64,000 bases of DNA from Candidatus Moraniibacteriota bacterium (GCA_963778555.1 CAVZUR010000004.1:180151-244150), one strand, 5' to 3'; positions 16,317-50,747 are shown, counted from the first letter of the stretch. A program made the numbers and translations. Notes: generated from the letters alone by a model not told the origin.

Positions 16317-16318
16317 AC

Positions 16319-20364: not shown

Positions 20365-20509
20365 GGGCGGTTTTTCTGCTTGATCAGTGGCTCAAAGTCG
20401 AACTTCCCTCCTCCTGCTCAATCACGCGAAATCGCGAGCCTGCTTGAATCTTACCCGTGACAACGAGAGATGCCAAGCGATTGGAAACCGGACGGAAAAG
20501 CGGCTTTTC

Positions 20510-21826: not shown

Positions 21827-21853
21827 AGGTGCGAGGTTACTGCGTTGGTGAGA

Positions 21854-22909: not shown

Positions 22910-22931
22910 AAAGAGAAATACGTTTCATGAG

Positions 22932-23333
22932 TTAGCGTGGGCGCTCATTGAAGAACCGCGACCACCACTTGAGATAATTCGGTGTTTCCCAGGCGACTGT
23001 CCGTATGTCCGCCGTATCGGTCAGATCCGTGCTGTCTTTCTGCGAAAAGCGAGTCTCACCCTCGACGGATATCATTTCCTCTTCCTGACGCCGGAGTCCG
23101 AGCTTTTCCTTCGCTTCGCCTTCTTTGAAATTCGGTGAAGCGAAATACTGGATCTTCTCGGAAAGCGTCTCATTCTCACGTGCGACACGCTCGGCCTCGG
23201 TCCTGAGCACTGCGATTTCGTTCTCGATCCGAACGCTCCGCTCGTATTGACGCAAACTCGCCCAACCCGCTGCCGTGCCCGCTCCCAAGGCGATGACCAG
23301 CCCCAAGCGCAGCCATGGAGAACGCCAACGCAT
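22932..23333 (-). CDS. FtsB/DivIC-like septum formation initiator
   Basis: Start placed at MRWRSPW. TM 'LGLVIALGAGTAAGWA' followed by coiled coil 'ENEIAVLRTEAERVARENETLSEKIQY'. Confidence 0.45.
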   Translation of the reverse strand: MRWRSPWLRLGLVIALGAGTAAGWASLRQYERSVRIENEIAVLRTEAERVARENETLSEKIQYFASPNFKEGEAKEKLGLRRQEEEMISVEGETRFSQKDSTDLTDTADIRTVAWETPNYLKWWSRFFNERPR

Positions 23334-23490
23334 ACGGCTAATAGAGGAAAAAAGGCGCGACGAGAAAGAGCACCATGGACAGCGCAACGAAGGCCGAAAT
23401 GACGACCCAGGCAAAATAAATCTTCTTGTGCCGTGATTTGAAGCTCATAGGCTGTTCCTCGGCCAGTATATCATAGCGCAAGCCGCTGAC

Positions 23491-24513: not shown

Positions 24514-24534
24514 AGTTTTCCTAGACTATCAAGA

Positions 24535-24563
24535 TTGACAGCTCCAATCAACATTGGTACTCT
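24535..24563 (+). promoter_or_regulatory. candidate sigma70-type promoter of the suf operon (TTGACA-17-TACTCT)
   Basis: 'ttgaca' 24535-24540, 17-nt spacer, 'tactct' 24558-24563, ~25 nt upstream of the Rrf2 ATG. Divergent from dus. Confidence 0.35.
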
Positions 24564-24588
24564 AAAGCAGACTTAATTAGTCCGCTTT

Positions 24589-24996
24589 ATGAAAGTATCA
24601 AAAAAGGCTTATTACGGGCTCCGCGCCGCCATCGCCCTCGCTCAGTCTGCTCACGGATTCTCCATCCATGCCTTGGCTGAATCCGAACATCTGCCGGAAG
24701 ACTATCTTGAAAAGATTCTCCAAGCCCTGCGCAAAGCTGGCCTCGTAGAAGCGACCAAGGGTGTCGCCGGTGGCTACACCCTGGCACGACCAGCCAAAGA
24801 TATGAGCGCCTGGGATATTCTCCGTGTCCTCGACGGACCGATCGAGATGTTTTCGCCACCCGTCACCGGTTCTCTTCCCTGCCTCCAGGTGAGCCACTGC
24901 CAATCGAACCAGGTCTGGCGAACCCTCGAAGAGAAGATCGAGCAAACGCTCTCCGAGATTTCGCTCGAGCACATTTCACAAACAATTTCCCGCTAG
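24589..24996 (+). CDS. Rrf2-family transcriptional regulator (IscR/SufR-like)
   Basis: 'KAYYGLRAAIALA' wHTH start, 'GVAGGYTLARPAKDMSAWDIL'. First gene of the suf operon. Confidence 0.8.
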   Translation: MKVSKKAYYGLRAAIALAQSAHGFSIHALAESEHLPEDYLEKILQALRKAGLVEATKGVAGGYTLARPAKDMSAWDILRVLDGPIEMFSPPVTGSLPCLQVSHCQSNQVWRTLEEKIEQTLSEISLEHISQTISR

Positions 24997-24997
24997 T

Positions 24998-25714
24998 ATG
25001 CTCTCTATTCAAAACTTGTCCGTCTCGGTTGAAGGGAAGAAGATTATCGATAACTTTACGTTCACCTTCAATCCAGGCAAAACCTACGCCCTCATGGGTC
25101 CGAACGGATCCGGCAAATCGACTCTCGCGAGCGCCATTATGGGCCATCCACACTATCGCCTTTCGAGAAATGCGAGAATACTCATTGGAAAAAAGAATCT
25201 GAAACATCTCTCGCCTGATAAGCGTGCCGGTCTCGGTGTATTCCTCTCTTTCCAGACGCCGATGGAGCTCGCTGGTGTGACGGTCTTCGAACTGCTGCGC
25301 CTCGCGCTCGAGAAAACTATCGAACCCGTGAAGCTTCACGGGCTCGTGGCACAACACGCTAAGGAACTACATATCAAAGATGATCTCCTCAAGCGTTCGC
25401 TCAACGCTGGATTCTCCGGCGGTGAAAAAAAGAAACTCGAAGCGCTCCAGGCCGTTCTCCTCGCTCCACGCTTCGCTATTTTTGATGAGATCGATACTGG
25501 CGTCGATGTCGATGCTCTGAAGACTATCTTCAAGTTCCTCGCCCGACACCTCCCAAAAGAGACAACGCTCGTATTCATTACGCATTCTCCTCGGCTTCTT
25601 AAAGCAATCCATCCGGATAAGATTCTCGTGCTCCGTGATGGACGCCTAGTGAAGACCGGCACCGCGGCGCTTGCGAAACAGATCGAAGCCAGAGGGTTTG
25701 CCACGATTGCATAA
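24998..25714 (+). CDS. sufC: Fe-S cluster assembly ATPase
   Basis: 'GPNGSGKSTL' Walker A, 'LSGGEKKK' signature, 'FDEIDTGVD' Walker B. Confidence 0.9.
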   Translation: MLSIQNLSVSVEGKKIIDNFTFTFNPGKTYALMGPNGSGKSTLASAIMGHPHYRLSRNARILIGKKNLKHLSPDKRAGLGVFLSFQTPMELAGVTVFELLRLALEKTIEPVKLHGLVAQHAKELHIKDDLLKRSLNAGFSGGEKKKLEALQAVLLAPRFAIFDEIDTGVDVDALKTIFKFLARHLPKETTLVFITHSPRLLKAIHPDKILVLRDGRLVKTGTAALAKQIEARGFATIA

Positions 25715-25719
25715 CACCC

Positions 25720-27126
25720 ATGACTCTCCCCAACAAACAATCAGTCGATCTCGGAGACTATCGGTATGGCTTTGCGATGCCCGAACGCTCCGTCCACAAA
25801 ACGAGCGCCGGTTTGGACACAGCAACCGTCGCCGAAATCTCAGGCGTCAAGAATGAGAGGAAATGGATGCGTGATTTCCGCTTGCGCAGCTATCAGACCT
25901 TTCTCGAGAAACCGATGCCCAACTGGGGCGCCGACCTCTCCGGCATTGACTTCGATAAAATCACCTATTATCTGAAGGCCACATCCGAACAGTCGCAAAC
26001 CTGGGAAGACTTGCCGAAAGAAATCCGTGAGACTTATGACAAGATCGGCGTGCCGGAAGCGGAAAAGAATTTTCTCGCCGGTGTTTCCGCCCAGTACGAG
26101 TCTGAAGTCGTCTACGAGAGCGTCCATAAGGAGCTGACTAAGCTCGGCGTCGTCTTCTGTGATATGGATACGGCCGTGAAGAAATATCCGAAAATCGTGA
26201 AGGAATATTTCGGCACGCTCATTCCGCCTCACGACAACAAATTCGCCGCACTCAATTCCGCCGTCTGGTCGGGCGGCTCATTCGTTTATGTTCCAAAGGG
26301 CGTCAAAGTGGATCTTCCTCTCCAGGCATATTTCCGCATCAATGCCGAAGCGTTCGGACAATTTGAACGCACCCTCATCATCGCCGAAGAGGGCAGCTCG
26401 GTGCACTACATCGAAGGCTGCACCGCGCCGATCTATCGCTCGAGCTCACTTCACTCAGCGGTCGTCGAGATCTTCGTGAAGAAGAATGCGCGCGTCCGCT
26501 ATACCACTGTCCAGAACTGGTCCAAGAATATCTACAACCTCGTCACCAAACGTGCCCGGGCCGAAGAGAATGCCGTCATGGAATGGATCGATTGCAATAT
26601 CGGCTCGGGTGTCACCATGAAGTACCCAGCCGTCTACCTCGCCGGGCGTGGCGCTCGGGGCGAAGTCTTATCAATCGCCTACGCGGGCCGCGACCAGCAT
26701 CAGGACGCCGGAGCGAAAATGGTCCACCTGGCGCCCGATACCACCTCGCGTGTCGTTTCGAAGTCGATTTCCAAAGATGGAGGACGAACCTCGTACCGCG
26801 GACTGGTACACATCGCCCAGGGAGCGACGAATGCCAAAGCCTCAGTCGTTTGCGATGCGCTCCTCCTCGATGAACATTCGCGCTCCGATACGTATCCCAC
26901 GATGCGCATCCATGAAGCGACGGCTTCAGTCGAACACGAGGCGACCGTCGAACGGATCGGCGAAGAAAGACTTTTCTATCTCACTTCGCGAGGGATCACA
27001 AAGGGTGATGCCGAAGGACTCCTCGTCAACGGCTTCATCGACTCGGTCGCGAAGGAAATCCCGCTAGAATACTCGATTGAGTTGAACCGATTGATTAATT
27101 TAGAAATGAAAGGGTCAATTGGATAA
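25720..27126 (+). CDS. sufB: Fe-S cluster assembly protein
   Basis: 468 aa. 'HYIEGCTAPIY' and C-terminal 'RIHEATASVEHEATV...EERLFYLTSRGI' typical of SufB. Confidence 0.9.
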   Translation: MTLPNKQSVDLGDYRYGFAMPERSVHKTSAGLDTATVAEISGVKNERKWMRDFRLRSYQTFLEKPMPNWGADLSGIDFDKITYYLKATSEQSQTWEDLPKEIRETYDKIGVPEAEKNFLAGVSAQYESEVVYESVHKELTKLGVVFCDMDTAVKKYPKIVKEYFGTLIPPHDNKFAALNSAVWSGGSFVYVPKGVKVDLPLQAYFRINAEAFGQFERTLIIAEEGSSVHYIEGCTAPIYRSSSLHSAVVEIFVKKNARVRYTTVQNWSKNIYNLVTKRARAEENAVMEWIDCNIGSGVTMKYPAVYLAGRGARGEVLSIAYAGRDQHQDAGAKMVHLAPDTTSRVVSKSISKDGGRTSYRGLVHIAQGATNAKASVVCDALLLDEHSRSDTYPTMRIHEATASVEHEATVERIGEERLFYLTSRGITKGDAEGLLVNGFIDSVAKEIPLEYSIELNRLINLEMKGSIG

Positions 27127-27128
27127 CT

Positions 27129-27719
27129 ATGCGCTCATTCGATATCTCCGCCGATCGAAAAACAACCTATCGCCTCGCAGCCAACGAGCACGTAGTGTTT
27201 TTCATGCAGAATCGGACAGGAGCGATCACGATCGAACTCACAGGTCCGGGGGCCGCGGCCCATGTCTTCGCGCTCTATACTGGTGACGGCGACTCAAAAC
27301 AATCGCTCACTCTCACGCAAAAACATCTCGCGCCCGATACTACCTCCAGTGCGCTCATTAAAACGACACTCGCCGGAAGGGCATCGTTCCATTATGATGG
27401 CGCCATCCGGATTGCCAAACAGGCTCATCGCTCGGACGCCTCCCAAGAAAGTCGATCGCTGCTTCTGTCGACCGAAGCGCGAGCGTATTCCCGCCCATCG
27501 CTTGAGATTCTTGCTCACGATATCGCCTGTCATCATGCGGCAGCAACTGGTCCACTGAATGAAGAGGCGCTCTTTTTCGCCGAATCGCGCGGTCTGTCCC
27601 GGTCCGCTGCCAAAAAGCTCCTCGTGCAGGGATTTTTCCATGAAGCCTTCGGACGGATGGAAAAGCTCGGGATCGAGACGTCGCTGTTCGAGGAAAAGTT
27701 TGAACCCGCGACGGTCTAA
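27129..27719 (+). CDS. sufD: Fe-S cluster assembly protein SufD (short form)
   Basis: 196 aa. beta-helix-like repeats and 'ACHHAAATGPLNEEALFFAESRGL' matching the SufB/D C-terminal region. Confidence 0.7.
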   Translation: MRSFDISADRKTTYRLAANEHVVFFMQNRTGAITIELTGPGAAAHVFALYTGDGDSKQSLTLTQKHLAPDTTSSALIKTTLAGRASFHYDGAIRIAKQAHRSDASQESRSLLLSTEARAYSRPSLEILAHDIACHHAAATGPLNEEALFFAESRGLSRSAAKKLLVQGFFHEAFGRMEKLGIETSLFEEKFEPATV

Positions 27720-30227: not shown

Positions 30228-31085
30228 CTAGCGGTAAGAATCGATAAGCTTGGCAAGTTTCGCTGAGTCTGGCTTTTTCATATACAACGGCTCGTTCCCC
30301 TCACGGACCACCGTTTCATAGCTCGGGCGGCCGGCTTCTTGGTATAAAACGCCGAGCGCCATCCGCTCCTGGTTCAAGGCGAGGGTGAGCGCCTTCACTT
30401 TATCGCTTCGGTCATGGTCAGCACCGAGATAATAGGTGTGATCCTTGAACCATTGGAAGGTATTCTGCTTGTTGAAAACGACGCAGGGCTGGAAGACATC
30501 GACGAGCGCATAGCCTTTGTGTTGTATCGCTGCCTTCACGATCTCTTTCGCCTGCGGAATATCACCGGAAAATGCCCGGGCCACAAACGTCGCACCGGCC
30601 GCGAGAGCAATGGCCATCGGATTGAACGGCTCGAGCATGACGCCGTCCACCTGCACCGGCGTCTTCATCCCTTTTTCGGTCGTCGGTGACGCCTGGCCCT
30701 TGGTCAGCCCGTAAATCATGTTGTTATGGACGATATTGGTGATATCGGGATTGCGCCGTATGGCGTGGAGGAAATGATTACCCCCCTCACCATAGGTATC
30801 TCCATCGCCACTTTCCGCAATGACGGTCAGTTTGGGATTCGCGATTTTGATGGCCGTCGCCGGCGGCAACGCCCGCCCATGCAGTCCATTGAAATAATGA
30901 ACCCGGAGATAGTGCGGCGTCTTGGCCGCCTGACCGATGCCCGAACAGATGACGACGTCGGTCGGTCGGATATCCATCTCGGCCAAGACGCCCTTCATGA
31001 TATTCAAAATCGGGAAATTCCCACATCCTGGGCACCAGGCCATATCCGTCCCATGCGGCATGTCGTAAAGCTTCTTGTCGATCAT
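30228..31085 (-). CDS. korB: 2-oxoacid:ferredoxin oxidoreductase beta (TPP-binding) subunit
   Basis: 'WCPGCGNF', 'GDGD..GEGGNH' TPP-binding motif, '[11 protein letters not shown]'. Confidence 0.85.
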
Positions 31086-32782
31086 AGCTTGTGAAAACGT
31101 TTGGTGAGTTCTTCAACCGAAAACGGGTTACCATCATATTTCAATATCCGTTCCGAAACGGTCATGCCGTACTCGCGCTCGAGGAGATCAGCAAATTGTC
31201 CGGCGACATTGTTTTCGACAACGACAATACTCTTTGTTTTTGGAAGTAGTTTCTTGCCCTCAAGCGATAACGGATAGACTTGGGAGAAATGCACGTGGGC
31301 GAAATACTCGTCATTCAAGACATCAAGCGCTTCTTCGACGACGCCAAAATTCGAACCCCAGGTGACGATAAGTGTCTTGGCCTTCTTCAGATGAGCAGAA
31401 GCAACTGGTGGCAGAGCGTCCGACAAGATGCCATTCGCCTTCCGCAGACGCTTGCTGTGCTGCTCGAGCCTAACGAGATGGCTCTCGGTAATATGTCCCA
31501 TCACGTCATGCTCATCAGAATCAACACCGACGAGGCCCGTACCAAACCCCGGGATGCCCCGCGGCGAAACACCATTCTTCGTCACTGCATAGCGAGCATA
31601 GCCGTCTTCCGTTGCGACCACATGCGCCTCAGTCGAAGCAGTCTTCAGGTCTTGCAGCGCGACGGTCGTAACCGAATCGAGGAAATACTGGTCCGTCAGG
31701 ACAAAAACCGGAATCTGGTACTTATCGGCGATATAAAAGGCCTGGCTCATCGCGTGATACGCCTCCTCCAGCGTTCCCGGCGCAAAGATCGCGCGCGGAA
31801 ATTCGCCATGCCCGGCATACAGTACGAGATTGAGATCGGCCTGTTCCGTCCGTGTCGGCAGGCCAGTTGCCGGACCAGGACGCTGGCCGACATGCACCAC
31901 AATCGGCGTCTCGATCATGCCTGCGAGACTCACTCCCTCGCACATCAGCGCGAAGCCACCGCCCGATGTCGTCACGACGGCCCGAGCGCCGGCATACCAA
32001 GCACCCAGTCCCTGATTGATGGCTGCAATCTCATCTTCTGCCTGATCGACTACGATGCCGAATTCTTTTTTGTGTTCAGCGAGAAAGGTCAGCAGTCCTG
32101 TCCCAGGCGACATCGGATACGAGCTGATATAATCGCAGCCCGCCGCCAGCGTGCCGAGACCGATACTTTCCATCCCATCCAGCAAGAGCTCGTCGTTTCC
32201 CTTGGTCTTGCGCGGAATAGAAATTTCGACTCCTTCCAAGTAAGCGACATGCGTACCATGGAGATAGCCTTTTTTGGCGGCTTCGATATTCTTTGCCACG
32301 ACTGCCTCGCCCTTGCGCGCAAAATGTTCTCGAAGATAGTCATGGAAGATGCTCTCCTCTGCCTTCAGGAGTCCGAGAACGACGCCGACCGCAACCGTGC
32401 TCGTATAGATCGGGTGGCCGAGCTCGTTCGCAAAGCGCGTGAACGGGATATCGACAACGCGGCATTCGTCGACGCAGACTTTTTCTTTTTCGCCGATGAC
32501 GATCGTCTCCTTGGTAATCCGATGCTTGAGATGAGGAATCACGTTCTTGTCGAGCGCGAAGAGGAAATCGATCCGATCGACATAGGCGCGCCGCTTCTTA
32601 GCGGTTAGTCGGATCTCGGTCGAATTGCTGCCGCCGCGAATCCGCGACATGTACTCCTTGGACGCGAAAACATTATAGCCTTCTCGCTTGAGGACTTGAA
32701 CCAATAGCGTCTCGACAGTCTGGACCCCCTGGCCAGCCGCCCCGCCGAGCACGATGGAAATATCACCCGAAAACCGATGCAT
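31082..32782 (-). CDS. korA: 2-oxoacid:ferredoxin oxidoreductase alpha subunit with fused gamma domain
   Basis: N-terminal '[15 protein letters not shown]' (gamma domain) followed by the alpha-subunit core 'YPMSPGT'. 4-nt overlap with korB. Confidence 0.85.
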
Positions 32783-32833
32783 GATGAAAATATATCTTTG
32801 TTTTTCTTCTCTCAGTATAGCAGAGCCCAGCCA

Positions 32834-33037
32834 CTATACGCTTCCGTCGAGCTCTTTTTTCACGATTTCGAATTCATTCTCCACTTCTCGCAGTCGTTCC
32901 TTGCTGGATTTGATCAGCGCGACGCCCTCTTTCACTTTCTCGAGCGCTTTCTCCACGTCAATCTCCTCCTGTTCCTCGAACCAGGCCGTAATGGATTCGA
33001 GTTTTTTCAGTGCTTCACCCAAAGATTCTTTTTTCAT
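32834..33037 (-). CDS. xseB: exodeoxyribonuclease VII small subunit
   Basis: 67-aa helical protein 'LEEALKKLESI...LEKVKEGVALIK'. 4-nt overlap with xseA. Confidence 0.65.
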   Translation of the reverse strand: MKKESLGEALKKLESITAWFEEQEEIDVEKALEKVKEGVALIKSSKERLREVENEFEIVKKELDGSV

Positions 33038-34585
33038 ACGCCTACTGTTTCCGTTAATCCTGTCACTTCTGATTCTATACTGCCATGACCGAGTTGTATA
33101 TCGATCCGATCCCCGATGGCGAGATTATTCGTCGCGCGGACTACTTTCCCCTGCCTTCGAACCAGTGCATACCCCAGCTGGAGCGCCCGAATCGGATCTG
33201 ATTGGCGTAGTTGCACCTCGGCAGTTTTCAGCCGATCGCGAACACTGATGAGAGCGGCATCGGTTTTCGCCTGCCAAAAGGCCATATCAGTCTCGAATCG
33301 CGCAGCCACCCGTCGGCCATACTCAGGGAACAGCGCCACTGCCTCACGGAAAGCGGCCCGGGTTGTCCCCACTCGCTCGATAATCTCCCCTAACGCCCCC
33401 CGGAGTGTTTCTTCCGACGCGCGGACTCGCTCGCGGACCAGGGTGCGAAATTCCTGCATGACGCGGTACAGCGCCAGCTGAGTGCTTGCCGAGACTCGCG
33501 CGCGCTTCATCCCAGGATACCGAGAGATAGCGTGCCGTTGCTGTCGGTGTGGAAACCATATGATCAGCGGCCAGTGCCGCGAGCGACACATCGCGCTCAT
33601 GACCGATGCCCGCCAAAACAGGAATCTGCGACTTCACGATTTCATTCACCAGCGCCTCGGTATTGAATGCTTGCAGGCTTTCCATACTGCCGCCGCCGCG
33701 GACGATGACGAGCGCAGCGTAGTGTTCCGGCGTGGCGTTGAAGTAGCGGATTGCCTCGATGATTTCGAACACCGCTTTTTTTCCTTCGACCAGCGTCGGA
33801 TAAAAATCGACCTTGAATCCGGTCCGGGCCAAATTCATCGTAAAGTCACCAATGGCCGCACCTTCGCGTGAGGTGATGAGCGCGATCCGTTCCGGAAACT
33901 CCGGAATCGCCCGCTTGCGCTCTAGCGCGAATGCCCCCGCACCCTCGAGCTTTTTATACAGCGCATCGTACGCTTTCTTCAATTCACCCGCACCGGCGTA
34001 CTCGATTACGCCCACCTTGAGCGAAAGTCGGCCAGACGGTTTGTAGATGTCCGGCGCACCCTCCACGATAACCTCATCCCCGATAGCCAGCGTCACACCC
34101 GACACCTCATACTGGTAGCGGAAGATGAGACAGTTGATGATGCTTTCATCGTCTCCGTCTTTGAGTGTGAAATACACTACGCGTTCCCGGATATCCACAC
34201 TTGAGACTTCGCCCTTGAGCCGCGCCGCCATACCGGACAGCTCGATATTCAGGCTATCGAGGAACTGCGAGACCGTCAGCGGTTCTGCTGGACCGACTGG
34301 AGGCTCAGGACCAGGCAGAGTGACATTCGGAGCCTCTTGTGCGGTCTCATTTCCGTCGGGCACATATTGAGAAATGAGCGCGATCAACGTCTTTCCATAA
34401 CGCCGATACTTCGCTTCCTTAATACCCTTCACGGCGCACAAGGTATCTTTATCAGTGGGCAAAACACGGGCCAACTCTTCGAGAGCGGCATTGTTCAAGA
34501 CGCGATATCCCTCCGCGCTCTCCACTCGCGCCTGTTCATCGCGCCACGCTCGGAGCGCCGACAATAACTCGTAGTTCATACCCAT
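33034..34585 (-). CDS. xseA: exodeoxyribonuclease VII large subunit with N-terminal HRDC domain; frameshift at ~33515-33530
   Basis: HRDC-like 'LLSALRAWRDEQARVE..VLNNAALEELARVLPTDKDTL..GIKEAKYRRYG'. OB-fold 'IELSGMAARLKGEVSSVDIRERVVYFTLKDGDDESIINCLIFR'. Catalytic core 'LITSREGAAIGDF', 'VIVRGGGS'. C-terminal helical tail is in a different frame (33034..33560). Confidence 0.75.
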
Positions 34586-34606
34586 CAGTCTTCACTTAGT
34601 CAACTA

Positions 34607-34627
34607 CTTGGAAGTTCGACTTCCAAG
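34607..34627. repeat. REP palindrome copy a 'cttggaagttcgacttccaag' (8 nt downstream of RAYT stop)
   Basis: Perfect 21-nt palindrome, identical to copies c and d. Confidence 0.85.
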
Positions 34628-34805
34628 TTGGACGCTACTCTAAAAACATCGACTCATCAAGCAGGCTTCTGCGCTCCAAAGTCCCTTTAAGGGATTCCTC
34701 TGCGAAGACTATATATTCTTCAGGCCTTCGGAATTGACTCAGCACCGCACCTTTCTCGCATATTCCATTACCACTCTGATGAACAGAATATTCGATCCAG
34801 CTCGA

Positions 34806-34826
34806 CTTGGAGGTCGAACCTCCAAG
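34806..34826. repeat. REP palindrome copy b 'cttggaggtcgaacctccaag' (inside RAYT CDS; compensatory aa>gg/tt>cc)
   Basis: Two paired substitutions keep perfect hairpin complementarity. In-frame, encoding 'LGGSTSK'. Confidence 0.85.
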
Positions 34827-35087
34827 TCGGTGGACACGGTTGTTTAGATTGACATAGGCGCTTATGTGCAAAAGATATTCATTCGAGTCAATATGAATCG
34901 CCTTGAACTTCCCTTGAAAGAGCGCTCCCGTCCGATCATACTTATTGTTGAAGTACTTCGTATATCCCGTTCCCAAACGTTGCATGAATTTCTCAATCCC
35001 CTTTTCAGTCACCGGCTCCAAGATGAAGTGGTAGTGGTTCGGATTCAGACAATAGGCCACAATGTTCACCAACTTCTTATCAGTATC

Positions 35088-35108
35088 CTTGGAAGTTCGA
35101 CTTCCAAG
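35088..35108. repeat. REP palindrome copy c (inside RAYT CDS)
   Basis: Identical 21-mer. In-frame, encoding 'LGSRTSK'. Confidence 0.85.
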
Positions 35109-35303
35109 TTGGTTCTTGCGACGAAAAGAGTTTTCAAATAGACTGCCGATCGGCTCCAAGACATTAAATTCAACCATGCTCTCAATAAAGCGAGGGATGT
35201 CGTCTCGGTCCGAAAAGATGTCCCGTTTTTCGGTACCACGATTATACACGTGATAGAATTCCCCTTCCGCAAAGACTGTCTTTCTCATGTCTCCAGCATA
35301 CCA

Positions 35304-35324
35304 CTTGGAAGTTCGACTTCCAAG
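35304..35324. repeat. REP palindrome copy d (upstream of RAYT start; extended 27-nt palindrome 35301-35327)
   Basis: Identical 21-mer lying between the RAYT start and the end of the LamG giant gene. Confidence 0.85.
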
Positions 35325-35357
35325 TGGGGGAATGGGCTGGCTAACTATATATGGACG

Positions 35358-35881
35358 CTAGCGGCCCTGGGCGTAGAGGGCTTTGATCTCGGCGGCGGTG
35401 AGGATGCGGCTGTAGATGCGGACCTCGTCGATGGAACCATCGAAGAAATTCGTTCCAGTTTCCGAGCCAAAACTAAATTTCCTGGAGGCGTCAGAATCCG
35501 CTGGCAGCGTTGTGGGAGTCGTGAATACGCCGACATTCGAGCTGAGAGCGTTGACGTACAGGACGGGACATTGGAGAGGGATGAATTGTTGTAGGTCGCG
35601 CAGACATGACTCCAGACATTCAAGGGAACCGCGCCGCTCGGGGCATACCATTCCCCATCCGTCCCTGCGAAATTACGATAGAACGCCAGATGTATCCCTG
35701 TCGGTCCGATGGCATCGTCAAGATAGAGGTACCAGCCAGCGCCATCCACTCGTCTCTTTCGAAATGAGCGTTTTGAATGTACCGCCCGGCGCAGTTTCCG
35801 GATAGATCCAGGCACAGGCCGTGAGATCGACAATATCATCGAGGCTCGTCCCAGACCCTGCGCCCACTGATCATCCGTCAC
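35358..35881 (-). CDS. C-terminal LamG/concanavalin-like domain of the giant surface protein (internally frameshifted remnant)
   Basis: 'GEWYAPSGAVPLNVWSHVCATYNNSS' and terminal 'FDGSIDEVRIYSRILTAAEIKALYAQGR' match the repeat consensus but sit in two frames. Confidence 0.5.
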
Positions 35882-35935
35882 CGTCGAAATTCAGCCCCTG
35901 TCCGAGCTTCCCGGGGACTTTGAGCGGGCCATTGG

Positions 35936-38683
35936 TCAAGGTCCCCGTATTCCTCGCTCCACTGATCGGTCATACGCTGTCGTCGTGCTGTACATATCCT
36001 GGGCATTGAAGGACCAGTAGCCTTCAAGCGATGTATCGACGCCGGTGGGGGTAGTGAGGCGATAGAGGTTGGCGATCTCTTCCTGGGAGAGAGCGCGGTC
36101 ATACACCCGCGCTTCATCGAGGGAGCCAGCGAAGGGCACACCGTTGTCGGCTTCAGCGCCGAGACGGAAAGCCACCGCATTGGCCAGGGTGCCGATGTTT
36201 CCGATGGTGCCGGTATCGGTGGCGCCATTGGGAGCGCCATTGATGTAAAGCTCGGTCCCAGTCGCCGAGTCTTGATCCCAAACGAAGGCGAAGTGATTCC
36301 AACCCGCAGCGGTGAAGGTAGAGGCTGAGGTGACGGAGTACTCATCGACCGCATCCGAGACTTCGCAGATGAGGGCGTCGGCGGCGGAGATGTAGCAGAG
36401 ATAGCCGGTATCGGCGGCGGTGATGCCGTTTCGTTTGGCGATGATGGTATCGTCGGTGGTGAAGGTAGAGCGGTTGAACCAGCCGGTCAGGGTGAAGTCT
36501 TCAGTATCAGCGAAGTCAAGAGTGGCCGTATCGGCCGTGGTGGCATAGTCATCGGTGCCGTCAAAGGTGATACCTGAGCCAATCTGTCCGGTGGTCCAGG
36601 TGGGGCCATTGGTGAGGGTGAGGGAAGCGATGGCGTTGGTGGAGGAGTCAGCGGCGGCGGTACCGGTGTTCTCGTCGAGGGTGAAGTAGCCGGTGAGGCC
36701 AGAGTCGAGACGGCCGGTGCCTTGGGATTGGGAGACAGAGGAGTTCACCTTGTCGGGAGCGCTCTGGTCATACAGGGATTTGATCTCGGCAGCAGAGAGA
36801 AAACGATTGTAGACGCGGACTTCGTCGATTTCACCGTCAAAGAACTCTGCCGCGGCAGTTTCAATGGCGCCGATACGAAAGCTCGAGGAAGCATCGGCAG
36901 GCGAAGTACCGACCGGCGTACTGTGTTCCAGCACCGGTACGGAAACACCGTTAATGAAAAAGGTTGGGTCATTGGCGACGGATGAATCATTGTATTCGAC
37001 ACAGACATGCGACCAGGCATTCAGCGGGACAGCGTCATCGGGTGCAGCCCAGCGGCCGATAGTCGTCCCGAAGCCGACCCATAATTGCAGCCGATTCGGG
37101 CTGACAGTATCGCTGAATTCAAAGTCCCACCCCGTCCCAGCATCATCCTTGGACATGATATTGGCGTACGTGGCCGGTATCGAATCCGGATGAATCCAGG
37201 CACAAGCGGTCAAATTGGCGATATCGTCGAGACTCGTCCCTGAGCCAGCATTCACATAGTCTGCCGTCCCATCGAAATCAAGTGCTTGGCCGAGTCTGCC
37301 CGGTACCTTGGGCGGAGCGCTGACCAGTGTCCCCGTATTCCTCGCCCCGCTCCGATCATACGCCGTCGTCGTGCTGTACATATCCTGCGCATTGAAGGAC
37401 CAGTAGCCTTCAAGCGCTGTATCGACGCCAGTGGGGGTAGTGAGGCGATAGAGGTTGGCGATCTCTTCCTGGGAGAGAGCGCGGTCATACACCCGGGCTT
37501 CATCGAGGGAGCCAGCGAAGGGCACACCGTTGTCGGCTTCAGCGCCGAGACGGAAAGCCACCGCATTGGCCAGGGTGCCGATGTTTCCGATGGTGCCGGT
37601 ATCGGTGGCGCCATTGGGAGCGCCATTGATGTAAAGCTCGGTCCCAGTCGCCGAGTCTTGATCCCAAACGAAGGCGAAGTGATTCCAACCCGCAGCGGTG
37701 AAGGTAGAGGCTGAAGTGACGGAGTACTCATCGACCGCATCCGAGACTTCGCAGATGAGGGCGTCGGCGGCGGAGATGTAGCAGAGATAGCCGGTATCAG
37801 CGGCGGTGATACCGTTTCGTTTGGCGATGATGGTATCGTCGGTGGTGAAGGTAGAGCGGTTGAACCAGCCGGTCAGGGTGAAGTCTTCAGTATCAGCGAA
37901 GTCAAGGGTGGCCGTATCGGCCGTGGTGGCATAGTCATCGGTGCCGTCAAAGGTGATGCCTGAGCCAATCTGTCCGGTGGTCCAGGTGGGGCCATTGGTG
38001 AGGGTGAGGGAAGCGATGGCGTTGGTGGAGGAGTCAGCGGCGGCGGTACCGGTGTTCTCGTCGAGGGTGAAGTAGCCGGTGAGGCCAGAGTCGAGACGGC
38101 CGGTGCCTTGGGCTTGGGAGACAGAGGAGTTCACCTTGTCGGGAGCACTCGTGTCATACAGGGCTTTGATCTCGGCGGCGGAGAGGAGGCGATTATAAAC
38201 ACGGACTTCGTCGATGGAGCCGTCGAAGAATTCCGATATATGTGCGCCGATGACAAGATTGGCTGCAGCATCGCTTGTTGCTGTCCCTACCGGCACGTCT
38301 AGCTCCGTAAAACGAACAGAGACGCCATTGATGTACAAAACCGGGTCGTTGGCAGCTGAGGAATCATTGTAGGTCGCGCAGACATGTTGCCAGGCATTGA
38401 GTGTTATCGTACCGTTGGCCGTGAGCCAATTCGCATTATTAGTAGTAAAACTTCGAAAAAGATCCAGAGCATTCCCGCTAGCCACATTGGTAATCTGAAA
38501 TGACCAGCCCGCCGATCCTGTATACTTGGCAGCAATTTGAGCCCAGGTGATAGGAATTGACTGCGGATAGATCCAGGCGCAGACGGAAAGGTTCACTAAA
38601 TCATCTACGATAGCGGCTGATCCCGCATTCACCAAGTCCGCCGTTCCATCGAAATCAAGTGCTTGGCCAAGCTTCCCTGGCAC
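35936..38683 (-). CDS. giant surface protein, central part: two full ~460-aa tandem repeats, each with two LamG/concanavalin-like domains
   Basis: 915-aa ORF with internal near-identical 460-aa repeats ('KVNSSVSQ[AS]QGTGRLDSGLTGYFTLDENTGT...LDEARVYDRALSQEEIANLY...FDGEIDEVRVYNRFLSAAEIKSLYD'). The ORF ends where the repeat junction gains +2 nt. Confidence 0.7.
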   Translation of the reverse strand: MPGKLGQALDFDGTADLVNAGSAAIVDDLVNLSVCAWIYPQSIPITWAQIAAKYTGSAGWSFQITNVASGNALDLFRSFTTNNANWLTANGTITLNAWQHVCATYNDSSAANDPVLYINGVSVRFTELDVPVGTATSDAAANLVIGAHISEFFDGSIDEVRVYNRLLSAAEIKALYDTSAPDKVNSSVSQAQGTGRLDSGLTGYFTLDENTGTAAADSSTNAIASLTLTNGPTWTTGQIGSGITFDGTDDYATTADTATLDFADTEDFTLTGWFNRSTFTTDDTIIAKRNGITAADTGYLCYISAADALICEVSDAVDEYSVTSASTFTAAGWNHFAFVWDQDSATGTELYINGAPNGATDTGTIGNIGTLANAVAFRLGAEADNGVPFAGSLDEARVYDRALSQEEIANLYRLTTPTGVDTALEGYWSFNAQDMYSTTTAYDRSGARNTGTLVSAPPKVPGRLGQALDFDGTADYVNAGSGTSLDDIANLTACAWIHPDSIPATYANIMSKDDAGTGWDFEFSDTVSPNRLQLWVGFGTTIGRWAAPDDAVPLNAWSHVCVEYNDSSVANDPTFFINGVSVPVLEHSTPVGTSPADASSSFRIGAIETAAAEFFDGEIDEVRVYNRFLSAAEIKSLYDQSAPDKVNSSVSQSQGTGRLDSGLTGYFTLDENTGTAAADSSTNAIASLTLTNGPTWTTGQIGSGITFDGTDDYATTADTATLDFADTEDFTLTGWFNRSTFTTDDTIIAKRNGITAADTGYLCYISAADALICEVSDAVDEYSVTSASTFTAAGWNHFAFVWDQDSATGTELYINGAPNGATDTGTIGNIGTLANAVAFRLGAEADNGVPFAGSLDEARVYDRALSQEEIANLYRLTTPTGVDTSLEGYWSFNAQDMYSTTTAYDRSVERGIRGP

Positions 38684-39520
38684 CTTGGGAGGCGCGCTCG
38701 TGAGCGTCCCCGTATTCCGCGCACCGTTCTGTCATACGCTGTCGTCGTGCTGTACATATCCTGGGCATTGAAGGACCAATAGCCTTTCAGTCCCGTATCG
38801 ACGCCGGTGGGGGTAGTGAGGCGATAGAGGTTGGCGATCTCTTCTCCTGAGAGAGCGCGGTCATACACCCGGGCTTCATCGAGGGAGCCAGCGAAGGGCA
38901 CACCGTTGTCGGCTTCAGCGCCGAGACGGAAAGCCACCGCATTGGCCAGGGTGCCGATGTTTCCGATGGTGCCGGTATCGGTGGCGCCATTGGGAGCGCC
39001 ATTGATGTAAAGCTCGGTCCCAGTCGCCGAGTCTTGATCCCAAACGAAGGCGAAGTGATTCCAACCCGCAGCGGTGAAGGTAGAGGCGGAGGTGACGGAG
39101 TACTCATCGACCGCATCCGAGACTTCGCAGATGAGGGCGTCGGCGGCGGAGATGTAGCAGAGATAGCCGGTATCAGCGGCGGTGATACCGTTTCGTTTGG
39201 CGATGATGGTATCGTCGGTGGTGAAGGTAGAGCGATTGAACCAGCCGGTCAGGGTGAAGTCTTCAGTATCAGCGAAGTCAAGAGTGGCCGTATCGGCCGT
39301 GGTGGCATAGTCATCGGTGCCGTCAAAGGTGATGCCTGAGCCAATCTGTCCGGTGGTCCAGGTGGGGCCATTGGTGAGGGTGAGGGAAGCGATGGCGTTG
39401 GTGGAGGAGTCAGCGGCGGCGGTACCGGTGTTCTCGTCGAGGGTGAAGTAGCCGGTGAGGCCAGAGTCGAGGCGGCCGGTGCCTTGGGGTGTGGCAATGG
39501 ACGTATTGGTTTGCTGTCCG
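35940..39520. repeat. tandem ~1.38-kb nucleotide repeats (about 2.6 copies) underlying the LamG protein
   Basis: Marker 'tcatacgc[ct]gtcgtcgtgctgtacatatcc' recurs at 35969, 37355 and 38733. Copies are >97% identical over >1 kb. Confidence 0.85.
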
Positions 39521-39615
39521 GCCCGGGCGGAGAAATACCAATAGCCAGCCCCCAACCCTAGGAGAATGGCGATAATCCCTAGCCACTGCCATGTACGGCC
39601 GCTAGTATATGTCAT
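38629..39615 (-). CDS. giant surface protein, N-terminal part (TM anchor + first LamG repeat)
   Basis: Start at MTYTSGR immediately after the GIY-YIG stop. TM 'WQWLGIIAILLGLGAGYWYF'. Then the same repeat sequence. The frame is lost at a -1 nt repeat junction (~38715). Confidence 0.65.
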   Translation of the reverse strand: MTYTSGRTWQWLGIIAILLGLGAGYWYFSARAGQQTNTSIATPQGTGRLDSGLTGYFTLDENTGTAAADSSTNAIASLTLTNGPTWTTGQIGSGITFDGTDDYATTADTATLDFADTEDFTLTGWFNRSTFTTDDTIIAKRNGITAADTGYLCYISAADALICEVSDAVDEYSVTSASTFTAAGWNHFAFVWDQDSATGTELYINGAPNGATDTGTIGNIGTLANAVAFRLGAEADNGVPFAGSLDEARVYDRALSGEEIANLYRLTTPTGVDTGLKGYWSFNAQDMYSTTTAYDRTVRGIRGRSRARLPRCQGSLAKHLISMERRTW

Positions 39616-39881
39616 AGAGCTAGACCCGTTAGAGACAGGAAGCGTTTCAATCGATTCTTTAGGTAGCGTTTTCCCATACCAGTCTTTAGGTACTTTTCTC
39701 GAGTGAAAGCATCGTGCACATCGATACAAGCTTCATAATAAATGATAGCAAATGGACCTCGGCCGTTGGTAGATGATACTTTTCCAGCAGCATGCTCATT
39801 GAAACGCTTCCGCATGTCTTCGGTACAGCCGGTATACCATTTTCCATCCTTTTTGCTTTTGAGCACGTAGGTGTAAAACAT
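39612..39881 (-). CDS. small GIY-YIG nuclease family protein
   Basis: 'FYTYVLKSKKDGKWYTGCTEDMRKRFNEH' is a GIY...YIG motif with conserved R and E. 89 aa from MFYTY. Confidence 0.6.
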   Translation of the reverse strand: MFYTYVLKSKKDGKWYTGCTEDMRKRFNEHAAGKVSSTNGRGPFAIIYYEACIDVHDAFTREKYLKTGMGKRYLKNRLKRFLSLTGLAL

Positions 39882-40059
39882 AGCTGTCTCTAACGGGGCG
39901 AGGCGATGGCGAGGGCGCCTAAGATGAGGCCGATGTATTGGTAGGTACGATACCGAGTGAGGGACATGTGAGGTGAGGGATGAGAGACTAGGGGTGGAGA
40001 ACAAGAGAAACAGGTTCCCAAGCGAGGGAGTGTGTTGGTTCTAGTTTATCATTTTTTGG

Positions 40060-40460
40060 CTAAACGTGTATTCTCTGCTTCGCAAAAAGTAAGAGAGAAG
40101 CAAGTGCTATGCCCAGGCCATCGATCGCCACATCAGTCAGCCTCGATCCGCGGCCGAAAATAAACAATTGGTGGACCTCATCGAGAACGCCATAGGTGAA
40201 GGCGAAGAGCGCTCCGACGAAGAGGACACGGATGAAAGATTCGCGCGGGTACAGTGCGGAAAACAACCGGTAGACGAGCCAGGTCAGGACTCGCATACTC
40301 GAACACATGCGCGGATTTGCGCTCCAGCACATACCAGAGCGGCGGATCAGAGGGCACGCCGCTCCCCGGCATCTGGGAAAAACCAAAAATCACGGCGCAC
40401 CACGAAAGAAGGAGCGCCAGCCGCAGAGAGACGGTCCGATCCGGCGGATGACGTTTCATA
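40060..40460 (-). pseudogene. VanZ-like family protein, frameshifted (~40295)
   Basis: N-terminal half 'LRLALLLSWCAVIFGFSQMPGSG' is in ORF 40178..40477. C-terminal half 'FTYGVLDEVHQLFIFGRGSRLTDVAIDGLGIALA' is in ORF 40060..40386. Confidence 0.5.
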
Positions 40461-40662: not shown

Positions 40663-41031
40663 CTAAGGCTTTACTTTTCTGATGAGGGTATTCAACATCC
40701 GCATCACTTCATCGAGCGTGCTCAGGACTGCTTCATACTCTCCTGATTTCAGTCTACCCAATTCGCGAGCAATCTCAAACTGAGTTTCAAGTTCTGCCCC
40801 AGACCCATAGGCAACATGGAGAAAATAATGGGACTCTTTCTTCGTTCCACGGCCATGTCCTTCAGCAATATTGGAAGCAACAGAAACCGCCGCTCTTCGC
40901 ATCTGCGACGTGAGTCCATACAAGTCTTCTTGAGGAAAGTCTTGAGTTAATGTATAGACAAGTACTGCAACATTCTTGGCTTTCTGCCAAACTATTAAGT
41001 CCCTATAAGAGCTGATATTCTCCTTATGCAT
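40663..41031 (-). CDS. four-helix-bundle protein of the 23S rRNA intervening-sequence / Avd-like family
   Basis: 122 aa. 'SYRDLIVWQKA', 'RRAAVSVASNIAEG', 'HYFLHVAYGSGAELETQ' typical of PF05635-type proteins. Confidence 0.75.
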   Translation of the reverse strand: MHKENISSYRDLIVWQKAKNVAVLVYTLTQDFPQEDLYGLTSQMRRAAVSVASNIAEGHGRGTKKESHYFLHVAYGSGAELETQFEIARELGRLKSGEYEAVLSTLDEVMRMLNTLIRKVKP

Positions 41032-47587: not shown

Positions 47588-48682
47588 TCAGTTTTCACTG
47601 TAACTCTCAAGCTGACTCTTGAACTCCATGGAATAGATCTCGCCCAGCGCGAGGAAGAGCGACACAATGATAGGCCCGATGATGAATCCCGGGAGACCGA
47701 AGAGTGCGATGCCGCCCAAAGTTGCGAAGAAAACCATCAGCGGGTGCATCTGGGTATCTTTCCCGACGAGCTTCGGTCGCAAGATATTATCAATCAGCGA
47801 GATCACCCCGAACCCCACGATCAGGATGAAGACACCCTGCCAAATCTGGCCCAACAGGAGAAGAATGATACCGACTGGCAGCCACACCAGGCCGGATCCG
47901 ACGAATGGGATGATCGAGAGCAGAATCATAAGAAGTCCCCAGATTGCGGGCGAAGGCACTCCGACGATCCAAAAAGCCAGCCCGCCGAGCAATCCCTGGA
48001 TGGCGCCGACAACCAGCGTGCCCTTCAGTGTCGCCCGGCTGATCGAGATGAATTTCGTCGCCAGAAGCGTTTCATGTTCGGTCTTGAGCGGTGAGAGCTT
48101 GATGAGATGACCGAACGCCTTCTGCCCATCGATGAGAAAATAGAAAAGGGTAAAGAACATGACAAACACCCAGAAGATGAAGTGTGTCACGCTCTGGTAG
48201 GCGGCCTGGAGCAGCCCGAGGGCGTTCTGGCTAAATTGCCGGATATCTTCCATCACGCTTTCTGTCGTGAACGCTGCATCCTTGAAAACAATCTGACCAA
48301 AAGCGGTCTGGTGGATCGTATTGACCGTGGTTTCGACAACACCGGCAAATGAGCGCTCTTCGCCGATGCTATGGTACAAATGATTCGCTTCGGCCACCGC
48401 CAAAGAAAGGACGGAGAGGATCGGGGTGACAATAATGAGTGCCACCAACAGGCACGTCACCAGGGAAGCGCTCGTCTCTCTATCGCCAAATATCCGTTTC
48501 AGCGATTCATAGACCGGCCGGAACAGGACCGAAAGAATCGCCGCCGCGACAATGGCCGTGAGAAAAGGCTGGAAAATGAAGAATACCGTGCCGCCCACGA
48601 TAAACATGATGAGGAAGAAGAAATAGATGTTGAGATTGCGTACCTGCATACCAGAAAACGAGCTGATTTTATCACGTATCAA
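47588..48682 (-). CDS. AI-2E family transporter (PerM/UPF0118)
   Basis: 8 TM with conserved 'IPFVGSGLVWLPVGIILLL' and 'LRPKLVGK'. Confidence 0.8.
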   Translation of the reverse strand: MIRDKISSFSGMQVRNLNIYFFFLIMFIVGGTVFFIFQPFLTAIVAAAILSVLFRPVYESLKRIFGDRETSASLVTCLLVALIIVTPILSVLSLAVAEANHLYHSIGEERSFAGVVETTVNTIHQTAFGQIVFKDAAFTTESVMEDIRQFSQNALGLLQAAYQSVTHFIFWVFVMFFTLFYFLIDGQKAFGHLIKLSPLKTEHETLLATKFISISRATLKGTLVVGAIQGLLGGLAFWIVGVPSPAIWGLLMILLSIIPFVGSGLVWLPVGIILLLLGQIWQGVFILIVGFGVISLIDNILRPKLVGKDTQMHPLMVFFATLGGIALFGLPGFIIGPIIVSLFLALGEIYSMEFKSQLESYSEN

Positions 48683-49657
48683 TACCCCGATTATAGCCGG
48701 AAATAGCCGATTTGGGAAAAACCTGGAAATTCGGCTTCCCGAGAAGTATCTGAGCGTTCACAGAGAGCGTCAATTTTCCCCGAATCAGCTGCTTGGCATG
48801 TGGCGGTCGGACAGACAGAGTCAATCCGTAGTGTCTTTCGAAATAGGCTTTGATACCAGTGCGCGTAGCATAGCCTTTCGGTAGGAGAAAGGGTTGATAT
48901 TTTTTTTGGTTCGAAGAATAGTACTGTCGGTGTTTCTCGTGAAGAATGACGATAGCCCGGGCTTCGGTCCAATCCTGTCGCCCGGTGAGTCTCATCGTTT
49001 TCTTTTTCTCCTCCTGTTTTCCACGCTCACGATAATACACGCACCGGAAACGAAGCGGGCAGGCCTCGCATTTCGGCTGGGCGACACAGAGCGCGCTGCC
49101 GAAATCCATGAGGGCCGCGTTCAGGGATTTTCTTGGCGTCATAAACTTGGCCTCAAAGGAACCTTCGTCGATCAGAGCTTGCCGTGTCCCAAAGAAAAAA
49201 CGGCCGATGACTCGCTTCAGATTCGTATCCCAGGCCAAGTGATTGTCCCGAAAGGCGAAACTCAGAATAGCCGCCGCTGTATACGGTCCGATACCGGGAA
49301 TTTTCTCAAGGAGTTTTTTTCACGCGGGAATTTTCCAGCATACTTGTTCGCGATAATCTGAGCCGCCAGGAGCATATTGCGTCCCCGCGCATAGTAGCCC
49401 AGCCCGGCATAATACGGGAGAAATTCCTCCCAGCTAACCCGTGCCAACATCTCGACCGTTGGAAACTTTTTGAGAAAACGCGTGTAGTACCCGATCACCC
49501 GCGACACCTGCGTCTGCTGCAACATAATCTCCGATACCCACACTTCGTACGCTGTAATCCCCCTCTTCCGCCAGGGCAATTCCGTCCTGCCCGCTTTGCG
49601 GAAAAAATCCATCAGGTACCGCTCAAAAAATACAATTTTGTCTTTCCGAATTGACAT
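48672..49657 (-). CDS. mutY: A/G-specific adenine DNA glycosylase; frameshift at a T7 homopolymer (~49315-49321)
   Basis: N-terminal HhH-GPD 'YEVWVSEIMLQQTQV...AGLGYYARGRNM' is in ORF 49262..49657. '[4Fe-4S] CVAQPKCEACPLRFRCVYY' plus the NUDIX-like MutY C-terminal domain is in ORF 48672..49238. Confidence 0.7.
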
Positions 49658-49670
49658 AGACATCATTCTT

Positions 49671-50747
49671 TCAATCCTGGATGACTCCCCCACCCAGACA
49701 GTACTCACCGCTGTAAAACACGGCGTATTGACCCGACGCAATCCCAGTGTCGGTTTCTTTTTGAAGCACGACTTCGAGCGTATTTTCGTCTTGCCACTGA
49801 ACTTGGCAGCCATATTCCTTTGGTCCATGGCGCAGCTTCACCGAAAGCCCCATACCATCTTCCGGCTTTTCATTAAACCAATTCAGATTTGTCACGGTGA
49901 AGGAGTTCCGGGCTCGTTCCGCCCGATGCTCCGCATGTGAAATCGAGATGGTATTCGTCACTCTGTCCTTTGCCACCACATACCACGGTCCGCCCGACAA
50001 GCCGATACCCTCCCGCTGACCGATAGTGAAATACCAAAAGCCCTGGTGTTCACCGAGTACCTTCCCGGTCTCGGATTCTACGAGCGGGCCTTTTTTTACT
50101 CCGAGGTGGTGTTTGAGAAACGCATCGAAGGGAATCTTGCCAAGAAAACAAATACCCTGGCTATCTTTGCGTTTCGCGTTCGGGAGTTGGAACCTCTCAG
50201 CTAACGCCCGGACTTCTGGCTTCGTATACTGGCCGATGGGAAAGAGCGCCCGGGACAGCTGCGCCTTCGAAAGCTGAGATAGAAAATAAGTCTGGTCCTT
50301 CACTTCATCGAGCGTCTTCTTCAGATATATGTTCCCTCCTCGTTTCTCTCCCTGTGCATAGTGCCCAGTCGCAACCTTCGCATAGCCGTCCCCAATCGCA
50401 TCGGAAAATGCACCGAACTTGATCCGCGCATTGCAGAGCATATCGGGATTCGGTGTCCGGCAGGCCTTCACTTCGCTGATCGCCTCCGCCACCACGCGCT
50501 CCCAATACTCTTTCTGAAGCGGTATGATTTCAAGCGGCACGCCGAGCTGGTCCGTCACGGCCCGAACAAATTGCAAGTCCTCTTCCCAGGGACAGTCGCC
50601 CAAAAATGCCAGCTCATCCTCCAGCCAGATTTTTATATAGAACGCGGTCACATCGAAACCTGCCACTTTGAGAAGGGCGAGGGCGACCGAGCTATCAACG
50701 CCGCCCGAAACCAGAACGGCGATTTTTTCATTTTTTTCGGCAGTCAT
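49671..50747 (-). CDS. mnmA: tRNA-specific 2-thiouridylase
   Basis: 'IAVLVSGGVDSSVA' PP-loop, catalytic Cys 'CNARIKFG' and 'GICFLG'. Confidence 0.9.
   Translation of the reverse strand: MTAEKNEKIAVLVSGGVDSSVALALLKVAGFDVTAFYIKIWLEDELAFLGDCPWEEDLQFVRAVTDQLGVPLEIIPLQKEYWERVVAEAISEVKACRTPNPDMLCNARIKFGAFSDAIGDGYAKVATGHYAQGEKRGGNIYLKKTLDEVKDQTYFLSQLSKAQLSRALFPIGQYTKPEVRALAERFQLPNAKRKDSQGICFLGKIPFDAFLKHHLGVKKGPLVESETGKVLGEHQGFWYFTIGQREGIGLSGGPWYVVAKDRVTNTISISHAEHRAERARNSFTVTNLNWFNEKPEDGMGLSVKLRHGPKEYGCQVQWQDENTLEVVLQKETDTGIASGQYAVFYSGEYCLGGGVIQD

Follow-up and report, generated by a model that had tools for sequence, protein, structure and literature searches.

Proteins with several LamG domains are, to our knowledge, among the few candidate host-attachment factors of bacteria of the candidate phyla radiation (CPR), and none of them has been tested by experiment. 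Here we describe a gene for one such protein, which lies in a 64,000-nt stretch of DNA (the window) from a Candidatus Moraniibacteriota bacterium (GCA_963778555.1, CAVZUR010000004.1:180151-244150). Concanavalin/LamG proteins of CPR and DPANN organisms are viewed as attachment factors, and an adhesin-like role is the standard inference for them in CPR (PMC11310336). The closest described relatives of the gene are LamG proteins of Candidatus Moranbacteria (e.g. P0007, P0027 and P0105), in which Laminin_G_3 domains of two types, A and B, alternate with a period of about 1.38-1.40 kb, as they do in the window gene. Their closest members (P0001 and P0002) show 57% identity to the window protein and share its neighbourhood and length class. 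These homologues are intact and their internal domains are about 30-57% identical, whereas the window gene has a broken frame and its three A domains are 99.5-100% identical as protein.

Long repeats that are identical as DNA, like those of the window gene, are found in the Gram-positive surface proteins alpha C/Rib, Esp and SasG (the 'periscope' type). Such repeats allow recombinational gain and loss of units, the number of repeats differing between strains in the Rib/alpha C type, and are kept identical by concerted evolution. Their units are Ig-like stalk modules, whereas in the window gene only the alternate domains are identical and these are lectin-like; unlike the Rib/alpha C type, the window protein has neither LPXTG nor any other C-terminal wall anchor. 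In this study we found that the locus belongs, as an ordinary member, to a large family of LamG surface proteins with six domains from Moranbacteria-type CPR, and that one of its own domain types has recently been homogenised. The lesions that break its frame are probably consensus errors or very recent mutations.

Results

The gene is made of three direct copies of one unit, with start positions 39483, 38107 and 36721 and lengths of 1376, 1386 and 1382 nt, respectively (Table 1). An earlier note, written from the sequence, had described near-identical repeats of ~1.38 kb with >97% identity. The three copies and their spacing (1376/1386 nt) stood, but identity at this level was confined to the first ~752 nt of each unit (97.6% for A1-A2, 97.6% for A1-A3 and 98.7% for A2-A3). 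This tract runs from the A domain through the linker LTTPTGVDT into the first strand of the domain that follows, as far as ...YSTTTAYD, and its end (alignment column 752) falls at 35969, 37355 and 38731, matching the marker positions 35969, 37355 and 38733 of the note. The remaining ~630 nt of each unit, encoding the B domain, showed 54-62% nucleotide identity, and the B proteins 53-63%. In units 2 and 3 the identity runs ~40 nt further upstream, into the inter-unit linker. Tandem Repeats Finder (longest period 500) reported no repeat in the window, because the 1.38-kb period exceeds its 500-nt limit.

A tract of 752 nt at 98% identity, present three times, is far beyond chance. The 1.38-kb period itself is the ancient architecture of the family: the loci of relatives have equal repeat spacing with a nucleotide identity of just 60-80%, and the best domain identity within a protein had a median of 51% in 120 homologues and exceeded 74% in one only. 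P0094 (1130 aa) was the sole one of the 120 with near-identical internal domains (97%), and therefore domain homogenisation recurs occasionally in the family. Compared with the homologues, the window A domain was ~69% identical to their first domain (d1), ~58% to the third (d3) and ~40% to the fifth (d5). Selection is not the cause of the homogenisation, because synonymous sites were homogenised as well. A repeat comparison of the 64-kb window found no donor A copy elsewhere inside it. The simplest account would be recent gene conversion of the A tract, in which conversion events within the gene and from ectopic copies would have placed d1-type sequence at positions 3 and 5 and spared the B domains, which stayed diverged.

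The homologue search used the 915-aa open reading frame (ORF) in the middle of the gene as the query; 8000 candidates were scored and 921 homologues passed the cut-off of E<=1e-10, of which 120 were listed and split into domains by hidden Markov model (HMM). The listed homologues are intact proteins of 836-1453 aa, several of them named LamG proteins of Candidatus Moranbacteria or Moraniibacteriota, with five domains in 67, six in 43 and four in 10; the lengths of the five- and six-domain forms are 1150-1450 aa. The window protein starts with MTYTSGRT, followed by WQWLGIIAILLGLGAGYWYF, SARAG and, read across the frames, six Laminin_G_3 jelly-roll domains in the order A-B-A-B-A-B. It stops straight after the last LamG domain (ALYAQGR, stop), with LPXTG absent at the C-terminus, and ...EIKALYAQGR is the ending typical of the family. 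In the closest homologues, P0001 (1424 aa) and P0002 (1410 aa), the N-terminus, A/B alternation, linkers and ...ALYxxGR end agree with those of the window protein, and P0005 (1420 aa) matches in both length and architecture. In the identity matrix and the consensus, the window gene thus has the N-terminal hydrophobic segment, the alternating domains, the conserved linkers and the ending of the family; what it lacks as assembled is an uninterrupted frame, owing to two junction frameshifts, one TGA and two more frameshifts.

At 1420 aa, the repaired protein has the usual length of the six-domain class, and the earlier description of it as 'giant' overstates its size. The gene also has to be read on the minus strand. 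The limits 35358-39615, the N-terminal hydrophobic segment and the richness in T, G, S, A and D (52% of residues) were described correctly. The consensus of the homologues over the N-terminal segment is QWxGILLxLxxxAxxYWYFxVRAGVK, and from its sequence this segment could serve as a signal anchor or be a Sec signal peptide that is cleaved off (SARA/G here, VRAG in the family consensus).

Two LamG domains per unit of the concanavalin-like type, as proposed before, were borne out by profile and structure. Pfam PF13385 (Laminin_G_3; gathering score 27.6 bits) matched A1 with 95.1 bits (E 5.9e-27, profile positions 1-151 of 151) and the 915-aa middle ORF (B1-A2-B2-A3) in four stretches with 340 bits (E 1.7e-102); the broken B3 fragment alone scored 22.4 bits, below the gathering score. 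Structure prediction of one repeat, which had been suggested as a check of the jelly roll, was done with AlphaFold2 on unit 2 (462 aa, 41-row alignment). It gave two all-beta domains folded as beta-sandwiches, with a mean predicted local distance difference test score (pLDDT) of 88.1 and a predicted template modelling score (pTM) of 0.85. Foldseek against the PDB returned 384 matches at E<=1e-3, the best being lectin-type jelly rolls at E ~1e-12, led by tetanus/botulinum neurotoxin (TeNT/BoNT) Hc-N, the lectin domain of trypanosomal trans-sialidase and laminin LG4-5. Sequence identity to solved structures of this kind (clostridial neurotoxin Hc-N, trans-sialidase lectin domain, laminin LG4-5 and pentraxins) is 9-14%. 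With full-length HMM matches and a predicted jelly-roll beta-sandwich for both domain types, assignment to PF13385 and the concanavalin A-like lectin/glucanase superfamily is secure. Judged from fold and family, the function would be extracellular binding of carbohydrate or a surface ligand, i.e. attachment.

At least five lesions interrupt the reading frame: one at each of two A-to-B junctions, and a TGA and two shifts in B3. The junction segments differ by -1, 0 and +2 nt, with the frame lost in units 1 and 3 and kept in unit 2. The junction lengths of 23, 24 and 26 nt given earlier fit these differences, and the frame is indeed broken at two of three junctions; the breaks lie inside the units, from A to B, and not between units. 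The TGA and the two shifts in the last domain had been missed. The TGA is probably a +1/-1 indel pair ~10 nt apart, and all of the lesions are small indels. Inspection of the sites together with Tandem Repeats Finder revealed no homopolymer or short repeat long enough for slippage at any lesion of the LamG gene, and the contexts GACAGAACGG, GACCGATCAGTGG, GAGACGAGTGG and GTCCCGTCC are free of simple-sequence tracts, which speaks against phase variation, one of the options named in the note.

The 9-mer GATCAGTGG occurs on the minus strand both at the TGA site of B3 (35864-35872) and at the FS2 site (35959-35967), 95 nt apart, and four times in the window against 0.42 expected. A GATC methylation motif was considered for the lesions and rejected, as GATC sites occur commonly all over the window and are, if anything, fewer than expected. 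Recoding of UGA was likewise rejected for the B3 TGA, as other genes read normally in code 11.

The broken frame is not accompanied by decay of the encoded protein. A2 and A3, both of which lie downstream of FS1, differ by 9 synonymous and 1 non-synonymous changes, giving a ratio of non-synonymous to synonymous substitution rates (dN/dS) of ~0.04 (binomial P = 3e-5), and across the opening 636 nt of the alignment of all three copies 10/10 variable sites are third-position and synonymous. Using a B-type HMM built from 129 B-type domains, repaired B3 scored 224.6 bits; B1 scored 222.9 and B2 233.6, and the median of the family was 221. Since this score is undiminished, no substitution load stands alongside the three or four indels of B3. 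These values show purifying selection, and neither the relaxed selection nor the loss of conserved residues expected of a decaying pseudogene was seen.

The lesions are regionally clustered: of the 11 in the window, at least 7 lie between 33.4 and 40.4 kb (P = 4e-5). Single indels are also present in five further conserved genes of the window, namely xseA, VanZ, an nth-like gene and two GT4 genes (Table 1). The xseA orthologue of a related locus (L001) is intact (507 aa), with 79% and 65% identity on the two sides of the lesion. The TGA in one GT4 gene (5510-5512) looks like a pair of compensating indels ~50 nt apart.

In an independent Logan assembly of run ERR11593397, one contig (L033) matched window positions 15053-27283 at 99.97% (0.03% divergence) without gaps, while another (L034) matched 30657-33108 with 1.2% divergence (30 mismatches in 2452 nt), also without gaps. 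The contigs stop before the lesions, the nearer one ending ~370 nt from the xseA frameshift. The more divergent segment adjoins the lesion cluster at 33.4-40.4 kb. Given 1.2% against 0.03% divergence, the LamG locus therefore sits in a strain-variable region, and the difference indicates co-existing strains with a variable island. When genome and metagenome contigs were searched with unit 2, all hits were distant relatives (<=46% identity), and a second assembly of the species was not among them.

A second LamG locus is present on the same contig. The window is part of a 402,909-nt NCBI/ENA contig that also encodes P0312 and P0241, both outside the window. P0312 (417 aa) contains the C-terminal part of a B2 with 100% protein identity, as well as the linker and an A domain differing at a single amino acid. 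Its tail, MTEVERG..., corresponds to the A3-to-B3 junction of the window without TC, i.e. in frame, and it is offset from the window sequence by the homopolymer changes T3->T4 and C3->C2. The shared tract is ~100% identical in amino acids from the C-terminus of B2 through A to the first ~25 codons of B3, and ~52% thereafter. P0241 (159 aa) is an uninterrupted terminal B-type fragment ending in RLYSRILTAAEIKALYAQGR and probably continues the locus of P0312.

The organism and the gene order agree with the family assignment. ProRS and SufB place the genome in Moranbacteria, and the homologues and housekeeping neighbours are named Candidatus Moranbacteria or Moraniibacteriota, in line with the CPR origin given in the note. 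The order SpoU-HAD-VanZ-(GIY-YIG)-LamG...xseA-xseB-POR is common to the window and the related loci L001 and L005, whose flanking-gene orthologues are 55-91% identical to those of the window. L005 reads SpoU-HAD-VanZ-LamG-LamG, and L001 reads LamG-GIY-YIG-LamG-LamG, followed by a 1229-aa gene and then xseA-xseB-POR. These relatives thus carry two or three tandem LamG paralogues, whereas the window has one plus an IS200-like element. The start codon of the LamG gene overlaps the stop codon of the upstream GIY-YIG gene, as ATGA. In L001, where the GIY-YIG gene is at 4808-5077, a second copy of its 3' end plus the 5' end of LamG precedes the next paralogue (4902-5126 vs 9430-9763, 87-90% identity), and from these sequences GIY-YIG-LamG seems to duplicate as a cassette.

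The IS200-like element is absent from the relatives at this position. A perfect hairpin, CCACTTGGAAGTTCGACTTCCAAGTGG, at 35301-35327 and a copy with 2 mismatches at 34604-34630 bracket its Y1 transposase gene, and a third copy of the hairpin stem lies inside the transposase ORF at 35088-35108.

Table 1. Coordinates of the LamG gene, its parts and lesions, and of other genes and elements in the window.
Feature	Position	Strand	Remarks
Whole LamG gene	35358..39615	-	ATG 39615-39613, stop 35360-35358; 1420 codons with indels removed
N-terminal hydrophobic segment WQWLGIIAILLGLGAGYWYF and SARAG after it	39532..39591	-	kept in homologues
A1 tract: A-type Laminin_G_3, linker LTTPTGVDT, first B strand	38732..39483	-	repeat alignment, Pfam
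B1: B-type Laminin_G_3, inter-unit linker SAPDKVNSSVSQAQ	38108..38731	-	frame differs from A1
A2 tract	37356..38107	-	98.7% identical to A3
B2: B-type domain	36722..37355	-	in frame with A2; sole intact junction, AYDRSGARNTGTL = family consensus
A3 tract	35970..36721	-	repeat alignment
B3: terminal B-type domain	35358..35969	-	TGA and two further frameshifts inside
Frameshift FS1: one base missing, A1-to-B1 junction (GCGTATGACAG^AACGGTGCG)	within 38720..38739	-	upstream ORF ends 366/328 aa in
Frameshift FS2: 2-nt insertion (TC), A3-to-B3 junction	35964..35965	-	P0312 reads MTEVERG, same sequence without TC
In-frame TGA in B3	35871..35873	-	FDG-D-G-stop-SV where family has FDGxDDYV
Frameshift FS3 (+1) in B3	35740..35759	-	ISKE... 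/ VDGAGWYLYL
Frameshift FS4 (-1) in B3	35556..35572	-	SSLSNVP / VLYVNA
GIY-YIG nuclease gene	39612..39884	-	TGA overlaps LamG ATG (ATGA), likewise in L001
IS200/RAYT-like element	34604..35327	-	Y1 transposase gene 34635-35288, intact, 217 aa; starts 30 nt past LamG stop
xseA (exonuclease VII large subunit)	33034-34585	-	+1 G at 33475 (GCTGGCG)
VanZ-like gene, upstream of GIY-YIG/LamG	40072-40423	-	+1 A at 40291 (GAGTATGCG-A-GTCCTG) vs L005 orthologue
HhH-GPD nth/mutY-like repair gene	48672-49828	-	split at A7 run 49314-49320; HhH motif IPGIGPYTAAAIL continues in next frame
GT4 glycosyltransferase gene	6100-7324	-	frameshift near 6410-6424; C-terminal GT1 motif in another frame
GT4 glycosyltransferase gene	4925-6109	-	in-frame TGA 5510-5512; disruption near 5510-5560

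Other genes of the window were also recorded. A four-helix-bundle protein (23S rRNA IVS protein, TIGR02436) encoded at 40663-41031 (-) has weak Avd-like similarity; no reverse transcriptase was found near it, so it is not part of a diversity-generating retroelement (DGR). The LamG gene was rejected as a DGR target as well: no reverse transcriptase was present among the ORFs scanned, the Avd score was 27.8 against a cut-off of 80, and the divergence of the B domains is general and not A-specific. At 51309-53321 (-) lies a gene for a 670-aa ATPase resembling TrwB/TraG-type coupling proteins, with a treble-clef zinc finger, which adjoins a gene for a 425-aa protein without a family match. Three consecutive ORFs (579, 405 and 144 aa) at 10926-14260 (+) have no Pfam or NCBIfam match; two of them overlap in different frames and two are parted by one same-frame stop codon, and together they may represent a single large gene that has been disrupted. 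This region has a strongly negative GC skew.

Discussion

From the sequence evidence, we regard consensus errors or very recent mutations as the source of the LamG indels, with a probability of about 0.6. Five or six frame-breaking indels would arise as consensus errors in a strain-variable, repeat-rich, metagenome-assembled stretch; at most they would be extremely recent mutations, and they would reflect neither phase variation nor long-standing decay. The second near-identical locus together with the regional indel cluster points to a problem of consensus quality. Several observations weigh on the other side. The Logan overlap of 14.7 kb in two contigs contains 34 substitutions and zero indels, and therefore the contig is not generally indel-prone. 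Most lesions lie outside homopolymers. The 0.6-kb B3 holds three or four of them and the 2.25 kb of A sequence holds none, an uneven pattern if errors were random. The load in B3 would fit a dispensable sixth domain decaying after FS2, five-domain proteins being commoner. As an IS200-like element abuts the gene and one LamG gene stands where relatives have two or three, genuine erosion is plausible.

A genuine recent pseudogene is accordingly the alternative that we take most seriously, although we consider it possible rather than probable. FS2 would have cut off the sixth domain, B3 would then have gained lesions, FS1 would later have truncated the protein after the first domain, and the region of 33-40 kb would be eroding around the IS200-like insertion. 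The concentration of lesions fits this, with five or six in 4.3 kb, concentrated in B3, while the remaining 60 kb of the window holds about five (binomial P = 2.5e-4), as do the contraction of the locus relative to L001 and L005 with its IS element, the breakage of both LamG loci of the contig and the absence of indel discrepancies from the Logan overlap; the product of FS2 would be family-typical, since five-domain homologues are the majority class. Yet A2 and A3 keep a dN/dS of ~0.04 although FS1 would leave them untranslated, and repaired B3 keeps the full family signal where real decay should bring many substitutions. Moreover, the lesions are all indels with no clear nonsense substitution, and the unrelated xseA and VanZ, 65-79% identical to intact orthologues around their single indel, were also struck. 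Mis-assembly of the repeat, by which the order or number of A-B units would be wrong (collapsed or chimeric between strains or the two loci) and the junction indels would be path joins, appears unlikely. Both junction frameshifts are within ~10 nt of the exact end of the 752-nt tract, repeats of 750 nt are longer than short reads, strain heterogeneity is found nearby and the contig has the second near-identical B2-A-B3' segment; given that locus, the repeat assembly here deserves checking. But the N-terminus, alternation, linkers and stop are in family order and three units with six domains and 1420 aa are the family norm, so copy-number collapse is not needed for this gene; each of the three copies has synonymous differences of its own, which a single collapsed node would not show; and lesions occur in unique sequence as well (B3, xseA and VanZ).

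Partial or broken LamG copies at two or more loci might donate tracts by segmental gene conversion into an expression site, possibly triggered by the translationally coupled GIY-YIG nuclease. Mosaic tracts such as that of the second locus (~100%, then ~52%), homogenisation confined to part of each unit, the conserved ATGA overlap and the GIY-YIG 3' remnant duplicated upstream of the second paralogue in L001 would suit such a cassette system. We nevertheless think it improbable, as the site where expression is supposed to occur is broken too and the tandem LamG genes of L005 come with no GIY-YIG gene. Small GIY-YIG genes are, besides, ubiquitous in CPR genomes. Surface adhesins are typical contingency genes, and a frame that differs at 2/3 junctions could suggest a phase-variable adhesin switched by junction slippage. 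Phase variation finds no support, since neither homopolymers nor short tandem repeats are present at the lesion sites; restoring the protein would take at least five independent switches, and housekeeping neighbours show like lesions, which leaves this reading with almost no weight.

For the question of CPR attachment the locus adds little: it is a further member of the family, and its frame break probably reflects data quality. Conserved genes here carry clustered single-base indels, which mark this stretch as unreliable for calling pseudogenes or phase variation. Cassette shuffling, if true, would diversify or even out the attachment protein of an episymbiont, and CPR would then have a counterpart to the cassette-based surface variation of pathogens. 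The locus is a clear case of partial concerted evolution, in which alternate domains only are homogenised and the tracts are common to two loci, and therefore the LamG family recombines actively.

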